The position numbers and the translations under genes are program-made. This document shows positions 7,505 through 61,993 of a stretch of DNA of 64,000 nt, one piece after another. The DNA is taken from positions 64,001 to 128,000 of the IMG/VR virus record IMGVR_UViG_3300049198_000021; one strand, given 5' to 3'. The notes beneath the pieces were generated by a model. That model did not search any database and was not told the origin of the DNA. It worked only from the letters and a program-made list of their open reading frames with translations. Within the stretch, counting starts at the first letter, position 1. Every line of letters starts with the position of its first letter. This stretch comes from a virus. Lineage: Duplodnaviria; Caudoviricetes.

Positions 7505-7667
7505 TATGGATCGAGGCCATTTTGCTTTCGTATGGATCGAGGCCATTTTATGGATCGATCTCGTTTTATGGATCGAGGTCATTTTGCCTTGCTATGGATC
7601 GAGGTCATTTTGCCGGCCGTATGGATCGAGGCCATTTTGCCCTGCTATGGATCGAGGCCATTTTGCC
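7505..7667 (+). repeat. Seven iteron-like repeats TATGGATCGAGGYCATTTT(GC)
   Basis: Units at about 7505, 7531, 7549, 7568, 7593, 7620 and 7646. Confidence 0.9.
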
Positions 7668-7720
7668 TACGCGGCGCGTGACCCCTCCCGGAGGCCCCTT
7701 CCGCGCCGGTCCCGGTAAGG

Positions 7721-7888
7721 TTAACGGCCCATTAACCTTTCTCCACCAGTAAGGTTAACGAAATCGGTCAATTTGTTAAGGTTAACAGCGCGTTAAGGTT
7801 AACAAACCCCTAATTTACTGCTCGTTAACCTTAACGAATATGGTTAACGGGCCATTAACCATGTTTGTTAACGTTAACGACTCGTTAA
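7721..7888. promoter_or_regulatory. Four TTAA-N7-TTAA sites (CtrA consensus)
   Basis: 7721-7736, 7782-7796, 7844-7859 and 7874-7888. Confidence 0.7.
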
Positions 7889-8058
7889 GGTTAATATGCG
7901 GAGCGATTTCGTTAAGGTTAACAGATTCGGGGCATCCGTTAACGTTAACGAGGTCTCCCCTCCCCGTTAACCATTGATCTGGAAAAAGTGCTTGACCGAA
8001 TCGGTTGCTTCTGCGACTCAGGATGCACGGCGAATCACCGCCGCTTGGAGACGACCTA

Positions 8059-27119: not shown

Positions 27120-27460
27120 GCGACCGCATCCGCCCCGTGGTTTTCGACTCGGCCCAGATCGAGCCCTTTGCCGCTCGCATCATCGGCATAGCCGCTTCGC
27201 AATTCTGTCGCCTCAAGGAGCGCGAGAAAGAGACCGGAGAGAAGTCGGACCCCTTCGACATGGAAGACGCTCTGATGCACCTCTGGTGGGCTCTCAAGGG
27301 GCTTGACCACATCGCAATAGCGTTGCGCGGCGGCAGGGATTGCGACGACCCGTCTGGCGTTCATTTTTCCATGGTGATGAACGCAGAACACGCCCGGATT
27401 CGCCGCCTTATCATGGAAGAACTCGGAGTCGATCCCGGATCACACCCGCGCTGGAAATGA
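27116..27460 (+). CDS. Cassette hypothetical protein
   Basis: GTGA overlap; terminator follows. Confidence 0.7.
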   Translation: MSDRIRPVVFDSAQIEPFAARIIGIAASQFCRLKEREKETGEKSDPFDMEDALMHLWWALKGLDHIAIALRGGRDCDDPSGVHFSMVMNAEHARIRRLIMEELGVDPGSHPRWK

Positions 27461-27613
27461 GGGGCTTCGGCCCCTCTTTCTTTTCTGGTAACCGTTCGTT
27501 AACCTTAATAAACGGCCCGAAATCGTTAACCATCAAAGTGGAAAAAGTGCTTGACCGAATCAGCGAATCGGCCCATACCCGAATCACCGCAACCAAGCGG
27601 ACGGAGACAGTCA

Positions 27614-27904
27614 ATGCAGACCAACGATCCCAGCGCCGTCACCCACCACAACGGAGGCACCACCTTCACCGGCGACGCCATCCACCTCTACCGCGCCGTG
27701 ACCCTCAAGGGCGCTCTCAAGCTGCACCGCGATTGCGGCATGATCCCGACTCGCGGCATGACCATCACAAAGATGTTCGCCATCGCCCAGCAGATCACCG
27801 GCAAGAAGTATAAGCGCGGCGGCCATGATGCGGCCATCACCGACCTGACCGCGTGGATCGAAGCCGCCAAGGCATCCATGCCGATCATCGACGAGCGGAC
27901 CTGA
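27614..27904 (+). CDS. Cassette hypothetical protein
   Basis: Start corrected to MQTND. Confidence 0.8.
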   Translation: MQTNDPSAVTHHNGGTTFTGDAIHLYRAVTLKGALKLHRDCGMIPTRGMTITKMFAIAQQITGKKYKRGGHDAAITDLTAWIEAAKASMPIIDERT

Positions 27905-28132
27905 AAGGAGATTGGTTAACGGGGAAGCCCTCCCCGTTAACCATATTTCCGGCTGGTAACCAGTCGTTAAGGTTAACAGCGCCGCAGCATTCCTTAACCA
28001 TCAAAGTGGAAAGTAAGTGGAAAAAGTGGTTGCACGAATCAGCGAATCGGTCTAGACCCGAATCACCGGGCGGCACCTACTGACTGGCAGAGCAGCGGCA
28101 AGGCTCGCCCGGTAAACAACAGGAGACAGACC

Positions 28133-28294
28133 ATGTTCGAAGTGATCACTACGCTCCGCACCTTCTATGTGCAGGCTGACACTTTCAACCTCGCCGTCCT
28201 CTCGGCTTATCAATTCATTCTGGACGACGAATCGATCCTCGGCATCAAGACCGACGGACCTGCAACGTTCATCATCGTGGAGATCGCAGCATGA
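28133..28294 (+). CDS. Small hypothetical protein (53 aa)
   Basis: MFEVITTLRTFYVQAD...; consensus RBS; absent from track. Confidence 0.7.
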   Translation: MFEVITTLRTFYVQADTFNLAVLSAYQFILDDESILGIKTDGPATFIIVEIAA

Positions 28295-28509
28295 TCAGCA
28301 AGAAAGACGCAATCGCCAAGGCAATCGCGGCTGGAGCCTCGCAAGAGGAAATCGACCGCCAAGCCGCAAACTACGTCCGCCAAGTGGGCAGCGTGCCTTT
28401 CAACAACATGATTCGCGCCCTTAACCTAGGCCCGTGGCTCAACACGGTTGACGACTGGACCCCGCTGGCAGCAGCCCTGACCGCGAGGGGATTGGCGCGA
28501 AAGCGCTAA
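28291..28509 (+). CDS. Cassette hypothetical protein
   Basis: ATGA overlap. Confidence 0.75.
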   Translation: MISKKDAIAKAIAAGASQEEIDRQAANYVRQVGSVPFNNMIRALNLGPWLNTVDDWTPLAAALTARGLARKR

Positions 28510-28629
28510 TTCCTTAACGGAATAGGGGAATTTGTTAAGGTTAACCCGAATTAAGAATAAAGTGGAAAAAGTGCTTGACCGAATCGGTTAACCATCCTAG
28601 AAACGAATCAACAGCAACGGAGACACACC

Positions 28630-28842
28630 ATGAAGATCAAGATCAAGACCACCGCCCGCTACACCGCCAAGCGCAAGGCTGCTATCATCGCCGACGTGGA
28701 CAACGGCACTACCACCCTCGAAGAGGTTTGCAGCCTGCACAACATCACAAGCGAAGAGTTCGACGGCTGGCGCAAGTCGCTGGACCGCTCGGGACAGCAG
28801 GGGCTTCGGATCACCCGGCTGCAACACTACCGGGCAGCATAA
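28630..28842 (+). CDS. sciP: SciP / DUF1153 family CtrA-inhibitory protein homologue
   Basis: T.R...RKA..I..V..G...LEE.C......EEF..W...LDR.G..GLR.TRLQ.YR matches alphaproteobacterial SciP along its length. Confidence 0.88.
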   Translation: MKIKIKTTARYTAKRKAAIIADVDNGTTTLEEVCSLHNITSEEFDGWRKSLDRSGQQGLRITRLQHYRAA

Positions 28843-28972
28843 GGGAAGGGGCTTCGGCTCTTTTTCTTTTGCCTTTAACCCAGTGTTAAGGTTAACAAGT
28901 CAACTGAATTAGTTAACTAATTAGCTGGAAAAAGTGCTTGACCGAATCAGCGAATCGGCCTAGACCCAAGCC

Positions 28973-29140
28973 ATGGAAATGACCCTTTCAGAAATCCGCC
29001 ACAAGCGTGACCGGGCAATCGTTCAGCGCCGACTCGGCGAGGAACGCCGCCGCCACGTTAACCAATGCGTCGCCGACATCATCGCACAAGGAAAGATGGA
29101 AGAGCGCCGCCAGACCACCCGACGGGAGGAAGACCAATGA
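28973..29140 (+). CDS. Small basic protein, probably leaderless
   Basis: ATG 6 nt after the -10 hexamer, no RBS; ATGA overlap with next gene. Confidence 0.6.
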   Translation: MEMTLSEIRHKRDRAIVQRRLGEERRRHVNQCVADIIAQGKMEERRQTTRREEDQ

Positions 29141-29337
29141 CAGACCGCCGATTCGTAATTGTCGAAAACGCCGGATATGAAGGCGAGCAAGACATCACCC
29201 ACTTTCTCACCTTGCGGGAGGCATTCGCCTATCAGCGCGGCCATTATGAGCCGGACGAGATCGAAGAATTGCACGTCGATATTCGCCAAGACTGGACGGA
29301 CGAAAACGGCGATTTTCATCAGGAATATGTCTATTAG
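29137..29337 (+). CDS. Small acidic protein
   Basis: GGAGG RBS; start MTDRR. Confidence 0.75.
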   Translation: MTDRRFVIVENAGYEGEQDITHFLTLREAFAYQRGHYEPDEIEELHVDIRQDWTDENGDFHQEYVY

Positions 29338-29404
29338 GTGGAAAAAGTGCTTGACCGAATCGGTGGCCTATGCGAAAACGAATCATCGAAACGGAGACAA
29401 GCAA

Positions 29405-29599
29405 ATGACCACCATCCTGATCCTCGCCGCCGCCGCCCTGATCTTCGCCACCGTGGCATTTTTCAAGGCCCGCGCCGAACTCGCCGCTCACGCCGCCGAA
29501 CAGGCAAGCAAGCATATCCCCAACCCCACCATCTACAGCGGCCCGCGCTTCACCGCACATGGCCGGGAAATCCAACAGACCGGACGGCGGATCATCTGA
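29405..29599 (+). CDS. Small membrane-anchored protein
   Basis: MTTILILAAAALIFATVAFF N-terminal hydrophobic helix. Confidence 0.75.
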   Translation: MTTILILAAAALIFATVAFFKARAELAAHAAEQASKHIPNPTIYSGPRFTAHGREIQQTGRRII

Positions 29600-29755
29600 G
29601 AAAGGGGCGGGAGAAATCCCGCCCTTTTCTTTGGCCGGTAACCGGGTGTTAAGGTTAATAAAACGGTGAAATTCGTTAATCATCAAAGTGGAAAAAGTGC
29701 TTGACCGAATCGGTTGGCGAGTTTAGACCCGAATCATTGGAAACGGAGACAGACC

Positions 29756-29953
29756 ATGAGCAAGCCCACCGAACAAGCAATCGCCGCCGACCTCGACCTT
29801 TGCGACATGATCCTTGCATTCGGAACGCCCGCCGCCAAGCGAAAGGCCCGCGCCCACCGCAAGGCTTGTTTCGCAGAAATCGCCCGGATGAACGCCGAGG
29901 CCGGGACTGACAAACTGAGCGATGATGAATTGCTCGCTGAATTGATGGCCTGA
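29756..29953 (+). CDS. Cassette hypothetical protein
   Basis: Start corrected to MSKPT. Confidence 0.8.
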   Translation: MSKPTEQAIAADLDLCDMILAFGTPAAKRKARAHRKACFAEIARMNAEAGTDKLSDDELLAELMA

Positions 29954-30141
29954 TAGGAACCGGCCCCTGACAACAGGGGCCGGGACCCTAATTCACTGAG
30001 AACAAGGGCCGGGCTCTAAAATCGTAAATTCAGGTTAACCTTAACAGATCGGTCGAAATCGTTAACTATTAAAGTGGAAAAAGTGCTTGACCGAATCGTT
30101 TGGCGCGTTTAGACCCGAATCATTGAAAACGGAGACAGACC

Positions 30142-30417
30142 ATGGAAAGATTCGAACTGACGGGCTCGGGCATCAGCGACGGGCAGAATCCGGAAAAACT
30201 GCTTGCTGCCGCGAAAAAGTGCGGCCTTCGGAATCCCCGACTCGCCTATCACTACGGCTGGTCCAATCAGCCGAAAACGATTCGTTTCAGCGCCGAAAAC
30301 TGGGAAGCTGCCGATAAGGTCGCCGATCTGGTGCGAACCGAGTTTTACCCGGAAAACGCCGAGGGCCGTTTGTGCCCGATGATTCGGGCCTATCCGGTAA
30401 AAGCCCCAGAAGCCTGA
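30142..30417 (+). CDS. Cassette hypothetical protein
   Basis: Consensus RBS. Confidence 0.8.
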   Translation: MERFELTGSGISDGQNPEKLLAAAKKCGLRNPRLAYHYGWSNQPKTIRFSAENWEAADKVADLVRTEFYPENAEGRLCPMIRAYPVKAPEA

Positions 30418-30590
30418 TCCCGGAAAAGCCCGATTCGCCGAATCGGGCTTTTTCCTTTTTCGGTAACCCTGCGTTAACCTTAATAAAACGGCGAAAATCG
30501 TTAACCCTAAAAATCGGCCTTTCTGGAAAAAGTGCTTGACCGAATCGGCCTTTTCTGGAAAAACCGGACCACCGCAAAGGGAGAAAAGAC

Positions 30591-30746
30591 ATGATCAGCA
30601 TGGAAGCGATTATTGGGGGCCTTATTTCGGGGTTCGCTGTGCGCCTCTATGGTGCAGGGCTTGCTCTCTATGTGGGCCTGTCTGCAAGCGACCTTATCAG
30701 CAGCACCTATGGGAGCGTGGCTGCTACCCTAGCCACCCTGCCCTAG
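30591..30746 (+). CDS. Small hydrophobic protein (51 aa)
   Basis: MISMEAIIGGLISGFAVRLYGAGLALYVGLSASDLISSTYGSVAATLATLP; GGGAGA RBS. Confidence 0.65.
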   Translation: MISMEAIIGGLISGFAVRLYGAGLALYVGLSASDLISSTYGSVAATLATLP

Positions 30747-53959: not shown

Positions 53960-54362
53960 TGACTTCATCGCAGCAGCCCGTTCTTATATGGGGGTGCGTT
54001 GGCGGCATCAGGGACGCAACCGGCTAGGGGTTGATTGTGTCGGCCTCGTGCTTTGCAGCCTGTCTGATATTGGTATCCCCGCACCGGACATGCAAGGCTA
54101 CCGACGGACGCCTGACCCGATCTTCGTCGAACACATTCGAAACAATTCGCTACCAGCCGAAGGCACACAGCCGGGAACCCTCGGAATTTTCCGAGACGGA
54201 ACCCAGCCATGTCACGTAGGTATCTTTGCAACTATGCATGGACAAACTTCCTTGATCCACGCCTACGCAGGCACAGGGATCGTCATGGAAGAAGTCTTCA
54301 TCCACGATTGGCCGAAAAAGCTAGTCGAGGTCCGCGCATTCAAGGGACTTGAATACATCTAA
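53946..54362 (+). CDS. NlpC/P60 family tail peptidase
   Basis: AR.Y.G..W.HQGR...GVDCVGL, HVGI, IHA. Confidence 0.9.
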   Translation: MPNSDDFIAAARSYMGVRWRHQGRNRLGVDCVGLVLCSLSDIGIPAPDMQGYRRTPDPIFVEHIRNNSLPAEGTQPGTLGIFRDGTQPCHVGIFATMHGQTSLIHAYAGTGIVMEEVFIHDWPKKLVEVRAFKGLEYI

Positions 54363-57300
54363 TGGGACAACTCGCGACCACCATCGTCGGCGGCGTCGTC
54401 GGCTTCGCGATCGGCGGGCCCTTCGGGGCTCAGGTCGGGATGATGCTTGGCGGCATGATCGGTGCCACGCTGTTTGGTCCGACCGTTCACGGCCCGCGTC
54501 TGAATGATCTCAAGGTCACAGCCTCGACCTACGGTGTTGCGATCCCTGAAATTTACGGGACCGTCCGGGTGGGTGGAAACATGATCTGGACCAGCGGCAT
54601 TAAGGAGACCAAGAAGTCTTCACGCCCCGGTAAAGGCGGCCCGAAGCAAACGACCTATTCCTACGACGCCACTTTTGCTATGGCGTTGTGTAAGGGAGAG
54701 GTCGAAGAAATTCTTCGCATCTGGGCCGATAGCAAAATCATCTACGATAAGACTGGTGGAACGACTCGGGCACCGGCCCCCGCCGGCAGCGACGGCGTTT
54801 TCCAAACCTTGTTCTTGGAAATTCTTACCACCAAGAAGAAGAAGAAGACAATCAATGTCAGGCTTTATCGAGGCGACGAAAACCAACTCCCGGACTCTCT
54901 GATCGAAGCAGATAAGGGAGTGGGGAACGTTTCGGCTCACCGTGGGCTTTCTTATGTTGTGTTCGAGCGGTTGCAGTTGGAGAACTTCGGTAACCGCATC
55001 CCTCAAATGACCTTCGAAGTCACCAAGGCCCGGACCCGTGGTCTGGCGGCCTTACCCGTGCGTGACCGTAGTGGGGTCATCGAGAACACAGCGAACCGAG
55101 ACTGGCTACCTGACTTCGCGTCGGGCCGGTTGCTCAGCTTTGATCGCAGTGGCGACGGCACCAAACTCTACAATATGGCGGACAACACGCTGATTGCAGA
55201 GGACGAGACCATGAATTTTGATCTGACCGATAAGTCCTACAGTCTTATCGAAGGTCAGAACGCCTTACTGGTTGCCAATTTCCCAGCCGGCGTCGGTTTT
55301 TCCTACTACAACACCGGTATTCTGACCAAGATCAACGAATACAACACGGCCAGCGGGACAACCAACATCTGGGACCCGGTGGCTAAGGAAATCACACTAG
55401 CTACAAACGGAAAGATCGGACACGGACGGTTTGTCTCGGGTGTTTCAGGCAGCGTGCATGTCGTCCATACCGATGTGACCGGCACAACCTTCTTGATGGA
55501 CAGTGAAGGGCGTCTCCTTAATGAGTTCGATGCCCCTTTCCAACCTGATGTTTTCCTAGAAGGACGACGCGACGCGTCAAACTCCCAGATCATCGGGTGG
55601 CGGTTTGCCAATGATCAACTCGAAATGTTCGAGGTCAAGACCGATTCGTCGGCGATCTATACGACGATCTTGGAAGCTGGCACTGAGACGTGGGTTCCCC
55701 AAACTGACTTCGCAGTGAGAAGCATCAACCTTAAACCATACCCGGCTGAGAAATTCCAACCACTGGCTCTGGTTTATGACCCAACAGACGACCATTTCTT
55801 CTGTCTTGGTGTTGATCCAGATAAATACAATGACATCGACTCCTTCGGTAACGGGGGCGGAGTCATCGTATTCAAATACTCCTTGGAGACCAATTCCTAC
55901 AAGTTCTTGGTGAAGCACGGCGGGACTCCCGTCCCTCGTGGTCTGACGCAAAACATGCGCGCCTCGCGTCTCGCTGGGGGCACGTTCGGGTGGATAGGTA
56001 AGCCAGCCGTCGGCGATCCAACGGTCAACCAAGTAAGCCTGCAAAATGGTAGTCTGGAAAACCTATTCGAAGCACAGGACGATTTCGGGTCTGGGCTCAC
56101 AGGAGTCGGGGATCAGTATTGGGACGACGAGACGGACAGCATCTTCGCTGATCGTATCGTGGCCGGTGTAACTAACAGCTATCGCCTGCGAGTCAGCGAT
56201 AGCATAGCACAGGTAACGGTTCCGGCGATCGTTGAGGACATCTGCGTCCGGAGCGGCATCTTGGCGCTGGAAGACATCGACATCACAGAGTTGGATGCGT
56301 CACCACTGGTGGGTTACTCCCTCGACCGAATGACAACTGCTCGGGATGCCTTGAAGCAGATGGCTACGGCGTTCCTCTTCGATGGCTATGAGAGCGATTA
56401 CAAGCTCAAGTTCCGCTCGCGTGGTGGTGACACGATCGTCAACATCCCGGAAGACTGGATGGCCCGTGAAGGGGAAGATGGTGTCATCAAAGAGACCATC
56501 ACGCAAGAGCTTGAGATGCCGGTCCGGATCAGCGTCAACTATTACGACATTGCCCGAGACCACCAGCAGAATAGCCAGACGGCGAAGCGCAAGGTTGCCC
56601 CCTATCCGACCATGTGGACGGCCAAGGAAGACCTCATCGACCTGCCCATCACATGGGACGCGGACTCGGCCAAGCAGTGTGCGGACAAGCTGCTCAAGAT
56701 GGCATGGGCAAACCGTGTCGGACACCAGTTCAACTTACCGTGGCGTTATCTGAAATACGATCCGACGGATGTCATCACCATCACGATGGAAAATGAGACG
56801 ACCTACAACCTGCGCCTCACCGAAGCGAACATTGGGTCCAACTTCTCGATCGAAGCACAGGCGGTTAGCGAAGTCGCGACCGCTTATGTCTCGACCGCGA
56901 CTGGTGCCCAAGCGCCGGCTCCCATCCAGACAGTTGAGGGTGATGGGACTGCCTTCCCGATCATCATGAATACGCCGTTGCTGCGTGATGTGGATTACGA
57001 CACCACCGGCTCTTCGATCTGCTATTTCTCGGCAGGGACCAACGAGATCAGCTTCAACGGAGCGGCGGTCTACATTGATGATGGTAGCGACTATCAGGCC
57101 GTGGGTGTCATCGATAACCAAACGACTACGGGATACGCTATTGATGCGCTCCCGAATACGAACAGCTACGAAGCCACTGACGAGACTACAGTCATTCGGG
57201 TGCGTTTGTCTGATCCAAGCATGGAGCTTGAATCGGTCACACAAGACGACATCCTGAACTTCGAAGCCAACTCGGCTTTGATCGGAAACGAGATCATCCA

Positions 57301-57964
57301 GTTCCGTGACGCAACCCTACTACCGACCGGTGAGTGGGCTCTGTCTGGTATTCTCCGCGCCCGGCGGGGCACGAACTATGCTGTGAAGGGACACCAACGA
57401 GGCGAGAACTTCCTGCTGGTCAACAGCCTCTCGACTGGTAAATTCTCCCGCCCGCCTGAGAGCTACGTCACTACCCGGTTGTTCAAGGCAGCCCCCCTGT
57501 CGGTCCCTCTGTCCGATGTGGTTCCGATTTCCGTGGACCTTATCCCGCGTGACCTTATGCCATACACCCCTGAGGCTGTTAAGGTGACCGACGACGCGAC
57601 TGATGTAGTCATAAGCGCCGAACGTCGTTCGCGTGTCACAGCGTCTCTCAGAGACGGTGTAAGCACCATTCACTACAAGGAAGGGGATATGCTCAGCGCC
57701 CGGATCGAGACCAAGGTCTGGTTCGGAAAAGGATTGGCCGATGTCAACTCCGTCGGCGCGGCTGACCTGACACTGACGAGCTACCTCTTTGACGCGGCTG
57801 GGGTGGACATTCCGGTGGAAGCTACATTCCCTGTCGCTTCCATGGGAGCAGAAGATACGGTCCTGATCCAACTCGCTGAGATTGGCGAAGTGACGGGAAC
57901 GCCCAAGTGGGTTCAAGCCACTCGCTACGGAACCGGACTGTGGGACCTTCTCGAATTGTATTGA
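54362..57964 (+). CDS. Tail tip / central fibre protein (GTA g15-like), copy 1
   Basis: GPRLNDL, YG..IP.IYG, AHRGL.YVVF..L.L..FGNRIP, LRARRGT. Confidence 0.88.
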   Translation: MGQLATTIVGGVVGFAIGGPFGAQVGMMLGGMIGATLFGPTVHGPRLNDLKVTASTYGVAIPEIYGTVRVGGNMIWTSGIKETKKSSRPGKGGPKQTTYSYDATFAMALCKGEVEEILRIWADSKIIYDKTGGTTRAPAPAGSDGVFQTLFLEILTTKKKKKTINVRLYRGDENQLPDSLIEADKGVGNVSAHRGLSYVVFERLQLENFGNRIPQMTFEVTKARTRGLAALPVRDRSGVIENTANRDWLPDFASGRLLSFDRSGDGTKLYNMADNTLIAEDETMNFDLTDKSYSLIEGQNALLVANFPAGVGFSYYNTGILTKINEYNTASGTTNIWDPVAKEITLATNGKIGHGRFVSGVSGSVHVVHTDVTGTTFLMDSEGRLLNEFDAPFQPDVFLEGRRDASNSQIIGWRFANDQLEMFEVKTDSSAIYTTILEAGTETWVPQTDFAVRSINLKPYPAEKFQPLALVYDPTDDHFFCLGVDPDKYNDIDSFGNGGGVIVFKYSLETNSYKFLVKHGGTPVPRGLTQNMRASRLAGGTFGWIGKPAVGDPTVNQVSLQNGSLENLFEAQDDFGSGLTGVGDQYWDDETDSIFADRIVAGVTNSYRLRVSDSIAQVTVPAIVEDICVRSGILALEDIDITELDASPLVGYSLDRMTTARDALKQMATAFLFDGYESDYKLKFRSRGGDTIVNIPEDWMAREGEDGVIKETITQELEMPVRISVNYYDIARDHQQNSQTAKRKVAPYPTMWTAKEDLIDLPITWDADSAKQCADKLLKMAWANRVGHQFNLPWRYLKYDPTDVITITMENETTYNLRLTEANIGSNFSIEAQAVSEVATAYVSTATGAQAPAPIQTVEGDGTAFPIIMNTPLLRDVDYDTTGSSICYFSAGTNEISFNGAAVYIDDGSDYQAVGVIDNQTTTGYAIDALPNTNSYEATDETTVIRVRLSDPSMELESVTQDDILNFEANSALIGNEIIQFRDATLLPTGEWALSGILRARRGTNYAVKGHQRGENFLLVNSLSTGKFSRPPESYVTTRLFKAAPLSVPLSDVVPISVDLIPRDLMPYTPEAVKVTDDATDVVISAERRSRVTASLRDGVSTIHYKEGDMLSARIETKVWFGKGLADVNSVGAADLTLTSYLFDAAGVDIPVEATFPVASMGAEDTVLIQLAEIGEVTGTPKWVQATRYGTGLWDLLELY

Positions 57965-58432: not shown

Positions 58433-61400
58433 ATGGGTCAACTTGTTACCACCATCGTCGGCGGCGTCATCGGCTTCCTTATCGGGGGACCGATGGGTGC
58501 GTCTATTGGTATGGCGCTGGGTGGAATGGTTGGTGCTACGCTGTTTGGTCCTACGATCAAGGGCCCGCGTCTCAATGACCTCAAGGTTTCTTCCTCGACC
58601 TACGGGATTGCGATCCCTGAAATCTACGGCACTGTCCGTCTCAGCACGAACCTGATCTGGACAACCGGGATCAAGGAAACCAAGAAGACGCGCCGCGCCG
58701 GCAAGGGCGGTCCCAAGGTCGAGACTTATTCCTACGATGCATCGTTTGCTTTGGGCCTTTGCAAGGGCCCGATCCGTGAGATTCTTCGCATCTGGGCGGA
58801 CAGTAAACTAATTTACGATGTCAGCAACAACGGAACCCGTAACCCGCTGAACGCGGGTCAATCCGGTATTCTGGCCCCGGTCCTGCTGTCGTTCAGAACG
58901 GGAGGAACCAAGAAAAAGCGGGTAAACCTGCGTATCTATCTGGGGAACGAGGAGCAGCTACCGGATTCGCTTATTGAAGCAGATAAGGGCGTCGGGAATG
59001 TCTCGGCTCACCGGGGCTTGGCCTATGTGGTATTCGAACGCCTCCAGCTTGAAGACTTCGGGAATCGCATCCCTCAGTTCACCATGGAAGTTACCAAAGC
59101 ACCGGCCGAAGCCTTCCCCTCGGTGGAGCAAAAAGAAGGACCGGCAGGCACTGTTGCACAACCGGATGCTAGAAACTGGTTCCCTGATTGGGAAAACGGC
59201 AAGGTTTACTCCAGCATTATTTCTAACGACGCGGAGGATGCTTACACGGAAGTGTTCGACCTCAATACTATGCAGAACATGCAGCGTTGGGATCGATCGA
59301 ATATGTGGTTCACTGGTCGATATGGTTTCGCGCCATGGGCTGGTATATTTATGCAAGACGATGGCGGGGGTAACTCCAGACCACTAGGGGTCTACAGTCT
59401 CAGCACTGGGGCTCGTATCGGCTTGTATGGTCAAAGTTCGCGCTCCCTGTCAGGTTACTATGTAGAATCGGGCCCTGCCCGAGGTGCTTTGGCTGTGGCG
59501 GCCAATTTTGGTAACCAAGCCACAGTGACACTGGATGGCAAGTATATCATGCTGGCCGGCTGGACCCGAGATAATTGGATTCTGACCAGAGGCGGAACAC
59601 CGGTCGGATGGTATGAAGGCGCTTGGTCGCCTTTCCACCTGATGCCCGCTCTTGGGTCGGTGTGGGGATGGCGTAGCGGCAACAGCGGGTTGCAGATTGC
59701 GGACTTCATCAGCGGCGGAATAGGACAATACTCGCTTGCTCCGCCCGACTCAAACGGAAACGTCTTTTGGAGACAGGGCGGTAGCCTTGCCTTCGACACC
59801 ACTCTGCGCCCACTACCCGGTGAGACTTATGTTCCATCGATATGCCTGTTCGATCCCTCGGACGGTCATTTCTTTAGTATTGGGCGATCGAACAACGGCT
59901 CCAGATCAATCCCGGTGGCTTTCAAATACAGCCCAATAACTGGGCTGTATAAATTCATCAATGCCGATCCAGAAATTCTGGTTCCAAATGGACCCATGCA
60001 ATGGTCGCGCCTAAACGGAGGGACTTTCGGTTATATTGCCGACTCCTTAAATCGAAACGTCAAAGTAAACTTACAGCAAATCAACTTACAGAACGGGGAA
60101 ATCGTAAGAGATTCGCGCTACGGAAGCACTTGGGGTGGCCCTATCTATGTAAGAGCGGACCAGCACTGGGATGATGTGAGTTCCAGTATTATTACAACCA
60201 CCAAAGATACCTTCCGTCGCATCTGGTTCAACAGCAACGCTAAGGCAGTTCGTCTGTCTGATGTTGTGCGCGATATTGCTACAAAATCCAATGTCCTGAC
60301 TGTCGATGAACTCGATACCACGAATTTATTCGATCAAGAGATTATTGGTTTCTCTATCGATAGGCAGTCGTCTGCGATGGATGCACTAAAGCTCCTAGCA
60401 ACCGGATATATGTTTGACGCCTACGAGAGCGATTACAAGCTCAAGTTCCGGACGCGTGGGCGAGATTCGGAGGTGGTAATCCCGCAAGACTGGATCGCCC
60501 GGTCTTCCGATGAGTTTATCAAAGAGAACATTGTCCAAGAGCTTGAGATGCCTCTCAAGGTCACGGTGAACTACTATGACACAGCGCGTGATCACCAGCA
60601 AGGCTCGCAGTCGTCGCGCCGCAACGCCGGGCCTTTCCCGACCATGTGGACGGCCAAGGAAGATATTATCGATCTCCCGTTGGTCTGGACACCGGACATG
60701 GCTAAGCAATCAGCAGACAAGCTGCTCAAGATGGCGTGGGCAAATCGTGTCGGCCTGCAATTCACTCTACCTTGGCGCTACCTGAAATACGAACCGTCGG
60801 ACATTATCACGCTCACCACTGATACAGCGACCTATTTCACGCGCCTAACTGAGACCACGATCGGGCAAGATTTCTCGATCGAGGCTTCCGGGGTGACTGA
60901 TAAAGCCAGTGCCTATGTATCGACCAAGGTCGGTAGTCGAGTGGATTCGCCGGAGCAGATTATCGAAGAAGGCTACCCAGCTTTCCCGATCGTGATCAAC
61001 ACCCCGTTGTTACGCGATGAAGACTATGACACCAGCGGAGCCTCTATTTGTTTCGTATCCGCCGGCACGAATGCCTTCACGTTCAGTGGAGCAGCTATCT
61101 ATGTTTACGACGGAATTGAAGACCAACGGATCGGCTTTATTGGTGCTGACACCGTGCGTGGAAGAGTTATCAACGAACTTCCATATACGACCGCATACGA
61201 ATCTACCGACGAAACCACTGTGCTAAAAGTTGTCCTGAACAACCCCAACGACGAGCTTGAGTCAGTGACCCAACTCGATATGCTTAACTTCGACATGAAC
61301 GCAGCTTTGGTGGGTGAGGAAGTTATCCAATTCCGGGATGCTGTGCAGCAACCCGACGGTGAGTGGTGGCTGACTGGTCTCCGCCGGGCCCGGCGCGGAA

Positions 61401-61993
61401 CCAACTATGCGTTACGGAACCACCAGCCGAACGAACTCTTCCTGCTGCTGGAACCTGAGGCGGTTACATCGTTCCCACGCCCGCCTGAGGCTTATGTGAC
61501 AACAACCGAGTTCTTGGCGGTCACACCGGGGCAGTTAATCACAGATGCAATCCCGGTTCTGGCGTCGCTCCAGCCCCGCGATCTCATGCCTTACACCCCT
61601 GAGGACATCAAGATCGACGACGACGGATCGGATGTGACCATTACGGTCCAGCGCCGATCGCGTATCATCGCCCCACTCCGTGACGGAATCAGTAACATCC
61701 ACTTCAAGGAAGGCGCGAAACAGACATCCAAGATCGCATGTCAGATTTGGCCGGGACGTGGCTTTGAGGTGGTAGATACAGCGCTACCGCCAACCTTGGT
61801 TGAGAATGTTTCGATCTTCGATGCTAATGGACAGGACCTACCATTAGAGATCATCTTCCCGCTTTCTACCTTAGGCGCATCAACCGTCTTCCTAGCCCGG
61901 ATCACAGAGCAGGGCGTGGTCGATGGTATTGCCAAGTGGATCAAGTTTGAACGGGTGGGCGCGGGACGTTGGAACCAGACCGAATTTTATTGA
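58433..61993 (+). CDS. Tail tip / central fibre protein (GTA g15-like), copy 2
   Basis: N- and C-terminal parts similar to 54362..57964; middle divergent. Confidence 0.88.
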   Translation: MGQLVTTIVGGVIGFLIGGPMGASIGMALGGMVGATLFGPTIKGPRLNDLKVSSSTYGIAIPEIYGTVRLSTNLIWTTGIKETKKTRRAGKGGPKVETYSYDASFALGLCKGPIREILRIWADSKLIYDVSNNGTRNPLNAGQSGILAPVLLSFRTGGTKKKRVNLRIYLGNEEQLPDSLIEADKGVGNVSAHRGLAYVVFERLQLEDFGNRIPQFTMEVTKAPAEAFPSVEQKEGPAGTVAQPDARNWFPDWENGKVYSSIISNDAEDAYTEVFDLNTMQNMQRWDRSNMWFTGRYGFAPWAGIFMQDDGGGNSRPLGVYSLSTGARIGLYGQSSRSLSGYYVESGPARGALAVAANFGNQATVTLDGKYIMLAGWTRDNWILTRGGTPVGWYEGAWSPFHLMPALGSVWGWRSGNSGLQIADFISGGIGQYSLAPPDSNGNVFWRQGGSLAFDTTLRPLPGETYVPSICLFDPSDGHFFSIGRSNNGSRSIPVAFKYSPITGLYKFINADPEILVPNGPMQWSRLNGGTFGYIADSLNRNVKVNLQQINLQNGEIVRDSRYGSTWGGPIYVRADQHWDDVSSSIITTTKDTFRRIWFNSNAKAVRLSDVVRDIATKSNVLTVDELDTTNLFDQEIIGFSIDRQSSAMDALKLLATGYMFDAYESDYKLKFRTRGRDSEVVIPQDWIARSSDEFIKENIVQELEMPLKVTVNYYDTARDHQQGSQSSRRNAGPFPTMWTAKEDIIDLPLVWTPDMAKQSADKLLKMAWANRVGLQFTLPWRYLKYEPSDIITLTTDTATYFTRLTETTIGQDFSIEASGVTDKASAYVSTKVGSRVDSPEQIIEEGYPAFPIVINTPLLRDEDYDTSGASICFVSAGTNAFTFSGAAIYVYDGIEDQRIGFIGADTVRGRVINELPYTTAYESTDETTVLKVVLNNPNDELESVTQLDMLNFDMNAALVGEEVIQFRDAVQQPDGEWWLTGLRRARRGTNYALRNHQPNELFLLLEPEAVTSFPRPPEAYVTTTEFLAVTPGQLITDAIPVLASLQPRDLMPYTPEDIKIDDDGSDVTITVQRRSRIIAPLRDGISNIHFKEGAKQTSKIACQIWPGRGFEVVDTALPPTLVENVSIFDANGQDLPLEIIFPLSTLGASTVFLARITEQGVVDGIAKWIKFERVGAGRWNQTEFY

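Follow-up and report, generated by a model that had tools for sequence, protein, structure and literature searches.

Within the window analysed here, a 64-kb stretch that corresponds to bases 64001-128000 of a 176.5-kb IMG/VR record rated complete by CheckV, a gene for a 70-residue SciP-like protein is found inside an array of 40 small-gene cassettes, all 40 on the plus strand, which spans about 23 kb or 13% of the genome. The features of the array and of the gene's own cassette are as follows:

~7988-30600, plus strand: array of 40 promoter-small gene-terminator cassettes, delimited by repeat families and promoter counts
7708-7975, plus strand: about 20 TTAAC-type half-sites clustered within 260 bp of intergenic DNA, before the first cassette, from site counts
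28514-28554, plus strand: upstream TTAAC-type boxes (TTAAC at 28514-28518, GTTAAGGTTAAC at 28534-45, TTAA at 28551-54), read from the sequence
28575-28603, plus strand: core promoter, with TTGACC at 28575-28580, a 17-nt spacer and TAGAAA at 28598-28603, recognised by its 40-fold recurrence
28587-28595, plus strand: candidate operator GTTAACCAT within the -35/-10 spacer, singled out by its unique placement and its retention in relatives
28619-28623, plus strand: Shine-Dalgarno sequence GGAGA in the leader common to the cassettes (repeat family D14)
28630-28842, plus strand: SciP-like (DUF1153) gene, 70 aa, stop included, from Pfam, NF051866, dN/dS, AF2 and Foldseek
28841-28873, plus strand: intrinsic terminator, a stem-loop and T run that ends this one-gene cassette (repeat family D12)

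The open reading frame at 28630-28842 is a real gene of the phage. It starts with ATG, 6 nt downstream of the Shine-Dalgarno sequence GGAGA, and no longer in-frame version is possible upstream, 70 residues being its maximum length. Compared with close relatives, the gene shows a dN/dS of 0.03-0.06 (Nei-Gojobori; 9-13 synonymous versus 1-2 non-synonymous changes), and with deeper relatives 0.33-0.49 by the same method; given these low ratios, it is under purifying selection. A 104-aa overlapping open reading frame (28575-28889) is an artefact that begins at the TTG of the -35 element, as occurs in every cassette.

The phage itself is likely a siphovirus-type, lytic-type phage of a Sphingomonadales (Erythrobacter-like) host. 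The window also encodes a large terminase, a DUF4055 portal, a GP7-type capsid protein, a tail tube protein, a tape-measure protein, two GTA-gp15-like tail proteins and PhoH. These two tail proteins, each of about 1200 aa and encoded side by side (54362-57964 and 58433-61993), are paralogs with Phage-tail_3 and Rcc01698_C domains, both of the RcGTA gp15-like host-specificity type; the duplication may correspond to specificity for two receptors. Among isolates, Erythrobacter phage XM05 (PV416404) is the nearest, with about 80% DNA identity around PhoH; its protein XM05_97, annotated as 'hypothetical protein', is 58% identical to the 70-aa protein over 48 aa. Eight close homologues of 68-70 aa are encoded in matching small-gene arrays of metagenomic contigs, IMG/VR holding seven close copies of the gene, and the position of the gene is kept in XM05, in the 7 close IMG/VR contigs and in a more distant contig of 151 kb (G008).

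The sequence-only reading had recognised the SciP/DUF1153 pattern along the whole 70-aa open reading frame and had proposed a DUF1153 search. This search returns a match to Pfam DUF1153 (PF06627) of 72.4 bits (E 3.5e-20; residues 6-68 on profile positions 25-87 of 87) against a gathering threshold of 23.5 bits; the gene scores 70.5 bits when the phage genome is searched in six frames, and the NCBIfam model 'CtrA inhibitor SciP' (NF051866) matches the protein at 68.2 bits (E 5e-19, profile positions 28-90 of 90). No PHROGs family corresponds to it. A profile of the phage proteins recovers by hmmsearch the solved DUF1153 structures 2jrt (E 2e-11) and 2oa4 (E 3e-10). The AF2 model (mean pLDDT 77) comprises helices at residues 13-24, 30-36 and 41-58 and a small beta bridge pairing residues 10-11 with 62-63, and its top PDB match in Foldseek is again 2jrt (probability 0.96, TM 0.62, E 0.24). 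By hmmsearch, AF2 and Foldseek, the protein thus has the three-helix HTH core of 2jrt and 2oa4.

NF051866 has a curated equivalog cut-off of 100 bits, and the 70-aa protein, at 68.2 bits, fails this test of SciP orthology, as its phage homologues would with scores of 52-70 bits; full-length SciPs of Croceibacterium salegens (Erythrobacteraceae), of a Caulobacter sp. and of Oleisolibacter reach 128-145 bits. The failure goes beyond truncation, since the Croceibacterium and Caulobacter SciPs still pass, at 104 and 114 bits, when cut to the core covered by the phage protein. The absence of the host N-terminal extension, already noticed from the sequence, is borne out by the alignments, which begin at profile positions 25 (Pfam) and 28 (NF051866). 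What is missing is an arm of about 30 residues conserved in cellular SciP (NF051866 positions 1-27, ..YVIGP.G.PLT...LPP..), which is worth about 38 bits of the model and is predicted to be ordered, with a small hairpin and a pLDDT of about 80, in the AF2 model of Croceibacterium SciP. Five Sphingomonadales genomes carry one or two DUF1153 genes each at 134-141 bits, and one of the five has two extra weak matches at 22-24 bits, one of them just above 23.5; the 72 bits of the phage protein fall between these two groups.

The nearest cellular proteins found by tblastn are Sphingomonadales SciPs (48-52% identity over 62 aa), while the SciPs of Parvibaculum, Kiloniella and Rhodospirillales are 41-44% identical to the phage protein. 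A quick maximum-likelihood tree groups the 11 phage proteins in a single clade (SH-aLRT 100), whose long stem of about 3 substitutions/site to the cellular proteins joins the Sphingomonadales side; this placement is only suggestive, because it was obtained from 75 columns and long branches. A recent capture of an intact host sciP is rejected in view of the long stem branch and the 48-52% identity.

A profile scan with the cellular SciP alignment provided 80 cellular SciP loci, in which 36 columns are at least 90% conserved. The phage clade keeps 17 of these 36 (R10, K16, A17, A21, G26, C34, E43, W47 and the tail G55-R68), shows conservative switches in 5 (W->Y, V->T, V->I, Y->H, L->I) and varies within itself in the remaining 14. 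In the alignment, R10 and R15 of the phage protein correspond to R35 and R40 of Caulobacter-type SciP, two residues outside the HTH that are critical for the interaction with CtrA according to the account of Gora et al. 2010 given in bioRxiv 10.1101/335265. The first of these positions is invariant (11/11 phage and 80/80 cellular proteins), and R15 is present in 8/11 phage proteins, the XM05 subgroup having I or V instead. The label 'SciP (CtrA inhibitor)' proposed from the sequence alone is therefore right in that the phage carries a true DUF1153 homologue, but goes too far as an orthologue assignment, with 68 bits where 100 are needed and 17/36 columns kept. Judged from its sequence, the protein is best described as a divergent SciP/DUF1153 protein reduced to its core, without the arm. 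It is a phage-borne variant of a known regulator family, not described in the literature searched, in which we found neither a phage-encoded SciP nor DUF1153 and phage mentioned together.

The cassettes of the array, which serve about 60 unrelated small genes, share a common architecture. Read 5'->3', a GC-rich terminator hairpin and T run are followed by GTAAC-N5-GTTAAGGTTAAC and about 15 nt, then by GTTAACCAT-CAAAGTGGAAAAAGTGC-TTGACC, a 17-nt spacer that starts with GAATC, and TAGAAA or TAGACC, and finally by CGAATCA, a short leader, GGAGA and ATG; the inner dyad GTTAAGGTTAAC is found in either orientation. The genome has 40 copies of this promoter element, at a constant distance from the Shine-Dalgarno sequence and the ATG. 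Its TTGACC/TAGAAA hexamers resemble alphaproteobacterial housekeeping promoters and not the E. coli consensus, and we infer its promoter function from this resemblance and from its repetition. An E. coli-type promoter scan of 27400-30700 accordingly finds 0 promoters, because the scan demands T as the last base of the -10 element, where TAGAAA and TAGACC have none. XM05, the close relatives and the 151-kb contig G008 all carry the same cassette family, with its boxes. GAATC, an instance of the CcrM methylation word GANTC, directly follows the -35 element in 36/40 cassettes and lies just after the -10 element in about 25/40; the density of GANTC is 7.6/kb in the array and 3.0/kb elsewhere, and early transcription may depend on the DNA methylation state.

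That these promoters carry CtrA-type sites, as stated in the sequence-only reading, is well supported by the counts. On the plus strand of the 176-kb genome, TTAACCAT occurs 30 times where about 1.5 copies are expected from an estimate based on base composition, an approximately 20-fold over-representation, and 25 of the 30 are inside the 23-kb array. This word is a CtrA half-site, and (G/A)TTAACCAT(A/G) is the motif recovered in Caulobacter from the strongest ChIP-seq peaks of SciP (PMC4083442); the cassette GTTAACCAT fits it at 9 of 10 positions. An exact TTAACCAT lies upstream of the -35 element in 22/40 cassettes, mostly at exactly -25 relative to the TTGACC T, which puts its centre near -57, and is absent in the other 18. 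The spacings between half-sites, 11 bp and 21 bp, represent one and two helical turns. Among the full sites upstream of the cassettes GTAA-N7-TTAA predominates, a sequence with one mismatch to the CtrA consensus and 23 copies in the array; the exact TTAA-N7-TTAA occurs 8 times in the window versus 0.22 expected, and four of these sites (7721, 7782, 7844 and 7874) are found in the half-site cluster at 7708-7975. In the intergenic region at 7560-7980, the cluster is preceded by a ~30-bp direct repeat in four copies (ATGGATCGAGGYCATTTTGCC...), and the region could serve as an origin or as a regulatory hub.

From the cassette of the SciP-like gene, the standard upstream GTTAACCATCAAA box is missing, and a box at +13 from the -35 T, within the spacer, is found in this cassette only among the 40. 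An identical spacer-box placement is seen in four relatives (L003, L004, L005 and L007; proteins 74-87% identical) whose upstream sequence has diverged. A factor bound to this box would overlap RNA polymerase, a geometry expected of a repressor site, which makes the box a candidate operator. The XM05 promoter of the two-gene unit that includes XM05_97 has neither the standard box nor the spacer box, and in G008 the box is inverted and shifted. With no exact upstream box in 18 of the 40 cassettes, the deviations of these promoters have no significance by themselves; what stands out is the conserved spacer box. Because GTTAACCAT sits between the -35 and -10 elements of its own promoter, the SciP-like gene is probably negatively (auto)regulated. 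In two of the relatives (L003 6779-6916 and L004 1549-1686), a cassette gene about 1.1 kb upstream of the SciP-like gene encodes a 45-aa protein with a Pfam match to ArfA, the alternative ribosome-rescue factor A.

The 176-kb phage genome encodes no CtrA and no OmpR-type winged-helix (Trans_reg_C) protein, nor does it encode GcrA, CcrM or any N6/N4 DNA methylase; any CtrA acting on the phage boxes must therefore be that of the host. Both CtrA (424 bits) and SciP (142 bits) are present in a Croceibacterium (Erythrobacteraceae) genome. Upstream of host sciP, 36 Sphingomonadales loci contain no exact TTAA-N7-TTAA or TTAACCAT, but the Caulobacterales positive control is equally negative, so that this result carries no information.

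Short DUF1153 proteins are also encoded by IMG/VR contigs beyond the XM05-like group (L110, L111, L112, L113, L114 and L115). They score 47-83 bits on the SciP model and start at profile position 22 or later, all of them without the arm, so that, from sequence, arm-less SciP-like proteins look like a recurrent viral form. The cassette promoter is absent from the three other-lineage contigs checked (G009, G010 and G012). The unrelated, complete 88-kb viral contig G010, which carries a 61-aa arm-less SciP-like gene (L112), has six GTTAACCAT versus 0 in the reversed control. Five of them are located at 5.0-6.4 kb; three lie in a tandem repeat of about 95 bp, and one is beside a run of TTAAGGTTAA-type boxes (L118, G010:C1:4000-8000). 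G010 may thus represent an independent case of a viral SciP-like gene paired with CtrA-type boxes; in G009 and G012, TTAACCAT is not enriched. One further contig of 45 kb (L109, IMGVR_UViG_3300024051_000088) encodes a full-length Caulobacter-type SciP (141 bits) 3 kb from its end, which may belong to the host flank of a prophage or to a phage with an intact sciP.

In the cell, SciP binds CtrA and prevents the recruitment of RNA polymerase at CtrA-activated promoters. The explanation that we favour, tentatively and at somewhat less than an even chance, is that the early phage protein docks on host CtrA, alters the activity of box-bearing promoters and exerts negative feedback at its own promoter. 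The SciP-like open reading frame would be an early gene, and its core-only product, a three-helix core flanked by basic N- and C-terminal strands, most likely retains the ability to dock on host CtrA, given that it keeps the arginines reported to be critical for the contact of SciP with CtrA. By way of CtrA, which is presumed to occupy the boxes, the output of promoters with CtrA/SciP-type boxes would change; the host targets would be the CtrA-activated motility and surface-appendage genes, and the phage targets its own ~22 early cassettes with GTTAACCAT centred near -57. At its own promoter, binding to the spacer word would block RNA polymerase, repression being the presumed sign of the effect. 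The feedback on the phage's own promoters envisaged in the sequence-only reading is plausible in view of the 9/10 fit to the SciP consensus. The 'cell-cycle arrest' also envisaged there is doubtful for the likely host order, and unlikely because Sphingomonas melonis loses CtrA without effect on growth or viability (PMC8116508); an effect on motility or surface appendages would be the likelier outcome for the host.

Arguing for CtrA docking are the family membership, the Sphingomonadales SciPs as nearest cellular relatives, the retained CtrA-contact residues, the purifying selection and the conserved position of the gene, the concentration of boxes and the unique, conserved spacer box, the presence of both CtrA and SciP in an Erythrobacteraceae genome, and a precedent from other phages of Alphaproteobacteria, whose promoters host CtrA is known to bind and regulate (Mascolo et al. 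2022, PMC9437464). Against it stand the I or V at the R40 equivalent and the lack of a spacer box in the XM05 subgroup, the score below the SciP equivalog cut-off, the missing arm and the predominance of GTAA-N7-TTAA among the full sites. Since 14/36 invariant columns vary and the stem branch is long, the partner or the function of the phage protein may have changed. A complex prediction of Croceibacterium CtrA with the phage protein scored 0.00 and was counted neither for nor against.

The protein could act independently of CtrA, as an HTH factor that itself recognises the GTTAAC/TTAACCAT boxes and sets the time at which the early cassettes, its own included, are shut off, but we consider this unlikely. 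Its membership of the HTH clan (HTH_Tnp_1 at 28.8 bits and a match to HTH_28) and its net charge of about +5 are consistent with DNA binding, as is a box layout that is fixed, phage-specific and conserved together with the gene in XM05-, window- and G008-type phages. The published views summarised in PMC4083442 are divided, one holding that SciP binds DNA alone and the opposing one that it makes no sequence-specific DNA contacts. The would-be recognition helix of the phage protein is acidic (SEEFDGW), however, and the boxes are not enriched in the G009 and G012 lineages, which also have short SciP-like genes; both observations speak against direct binding.

The retained contact positions R10 and R15 would also suit an anti-SciP decoy. 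Here the arm-less protein would fill the SciP site on CtrA without blocking RNA polymerase, and so shield CtrA-activated phage early promoters from host SciP in SciP-rich cells. The whole arm is indeed missing, as it is in the other viral DUF1153 proteins examined (start at or beyond profile position 22), and the phage promoters bear the motif of SciP-repressed Caulobacter promoters (PMC4083442). Nevertheless, a repressor is the simpler explanation of the spacer box in the gene's own promoter, and we regard a decoy as improbable. There is likewise a low probability that this diverged DUF1153 protein has a target unrelated to CtrA or to the boxes, for example RNA polymerase, a phage protein or some other regulator of the host, in which case its location in the array would be incidental. 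The long branch and the SciP score under the threshold would agree with such a change, and with ~60 unrelated small genes in the same cassettes the context alone says little, but conservation extends to the arginines of the CtrA contact and to the C-terminal tail, and the spacer box of the gene's own promoter is both unique and conserved. Finally, a remnant of an IS transposase HTH (IS3/IS66 OrfA-like) or a non-functional open reading frame is hardly credible: the matches to the HTH_Tnp_1, IS3 (18 bits versus a cut-off of 160) and IS66 TnpA (16 versus 74) models are weak and the DUF1153 score is far higher, the neighbours are unrelated small cassette genes with no transposase open reading frame or inverted repeats nearby, and the gene has its own promoter, Shine-Dalgarno sequence and terminator in addition to its very low dN/dS.

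Docking on host CtrA may form part of a larger scheme, possible in our view though rather doubtful as a whole, in which the phage runs its own CtrA/SciP-type switch: some 22-25 early promoters would read host CtrA by means of their fixed TTAACCAT and GTAA-N7-TTAA boxes, and the arm-less SciP, itself the product of one such cassette, would re-set CtrA both there and at the host motility and appendage promoters, through silencing or through shielding from host SciP, while limiting itself via the spacer operator. Were this the case, arm-less SciP-like proteins would constitute a tool that viruses use generally against the CtrA circuit of Alphaproteobacteria, as short forms of this kind are found in at least three further viral lineages, and would offer phages a possible route to turn off (or keep on) motility, pili and their own early genes. 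A natural core-only SciP can also reveal the role of the arm, and bears on the dispute as to whether SciP acts through CtrA or through DNA. The culturable relative XM05, with its gene XM05_97, makes such experiments feasible. XM05_97 is the positional orthologue: it lies in the same array of cassettes, ahead of PhoH and portal, and has a promoter of the same family; it differs in its length of 64 aa, in being second in a two-gene unit, in having I at the R40 equivalent and in the lack of TTAACCAT in the promoter spacer.

With alphaproteobacterial SciP, as known from Caulobacter, the phage protein shares the fold family, the core motifs TxR(W/Y), (R/K)RKA, EEF..W and RxGxxGLRxTRxQxYR, the equivalents of R35 and R40, and the association of its gene with the TTAACCAT word. 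In contrast, it is phage-encoded, has only 70 aa, lacks the arm (YVIGP..PLT..LPP) and keeps about half of the invariant positions. SciP is transcribed from a CtrA-activated G1 promoter and is turned over in a Lon-dependent manner, whereas the phage gene has a putative promoter of the common, housekeeping-type early-cassette kind, with a CtrA half-site in its spacer, where binding would repress. The site cluster at 7708-7975 is reminiscent of the CtrA-site-rich intergenic regions of other alphaproteobacterial phages, and the phage genome displays the skewed intergenic clustering of CtrA-type sites described for them (Mascolo et al. 2022, PMC9437464). As in the pili- and flagellotropic phages with 'lytic deferment' of that study, these sites are clustered in intergenic promoter regions; here, however, the boxes are a fixed module of ~40 repeated early-gene cassettes. 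The phage genomes were scanned in that work for SciP binding sites only, and no phage SciP gene was reported (PMC9437464), whereas the phage considered here also encodes a homologue of the CtrA antagonist. Phages of Alphaproteobacteria are known to read CtrA through their sites, and one with a SciP relative would also write to the circuit.
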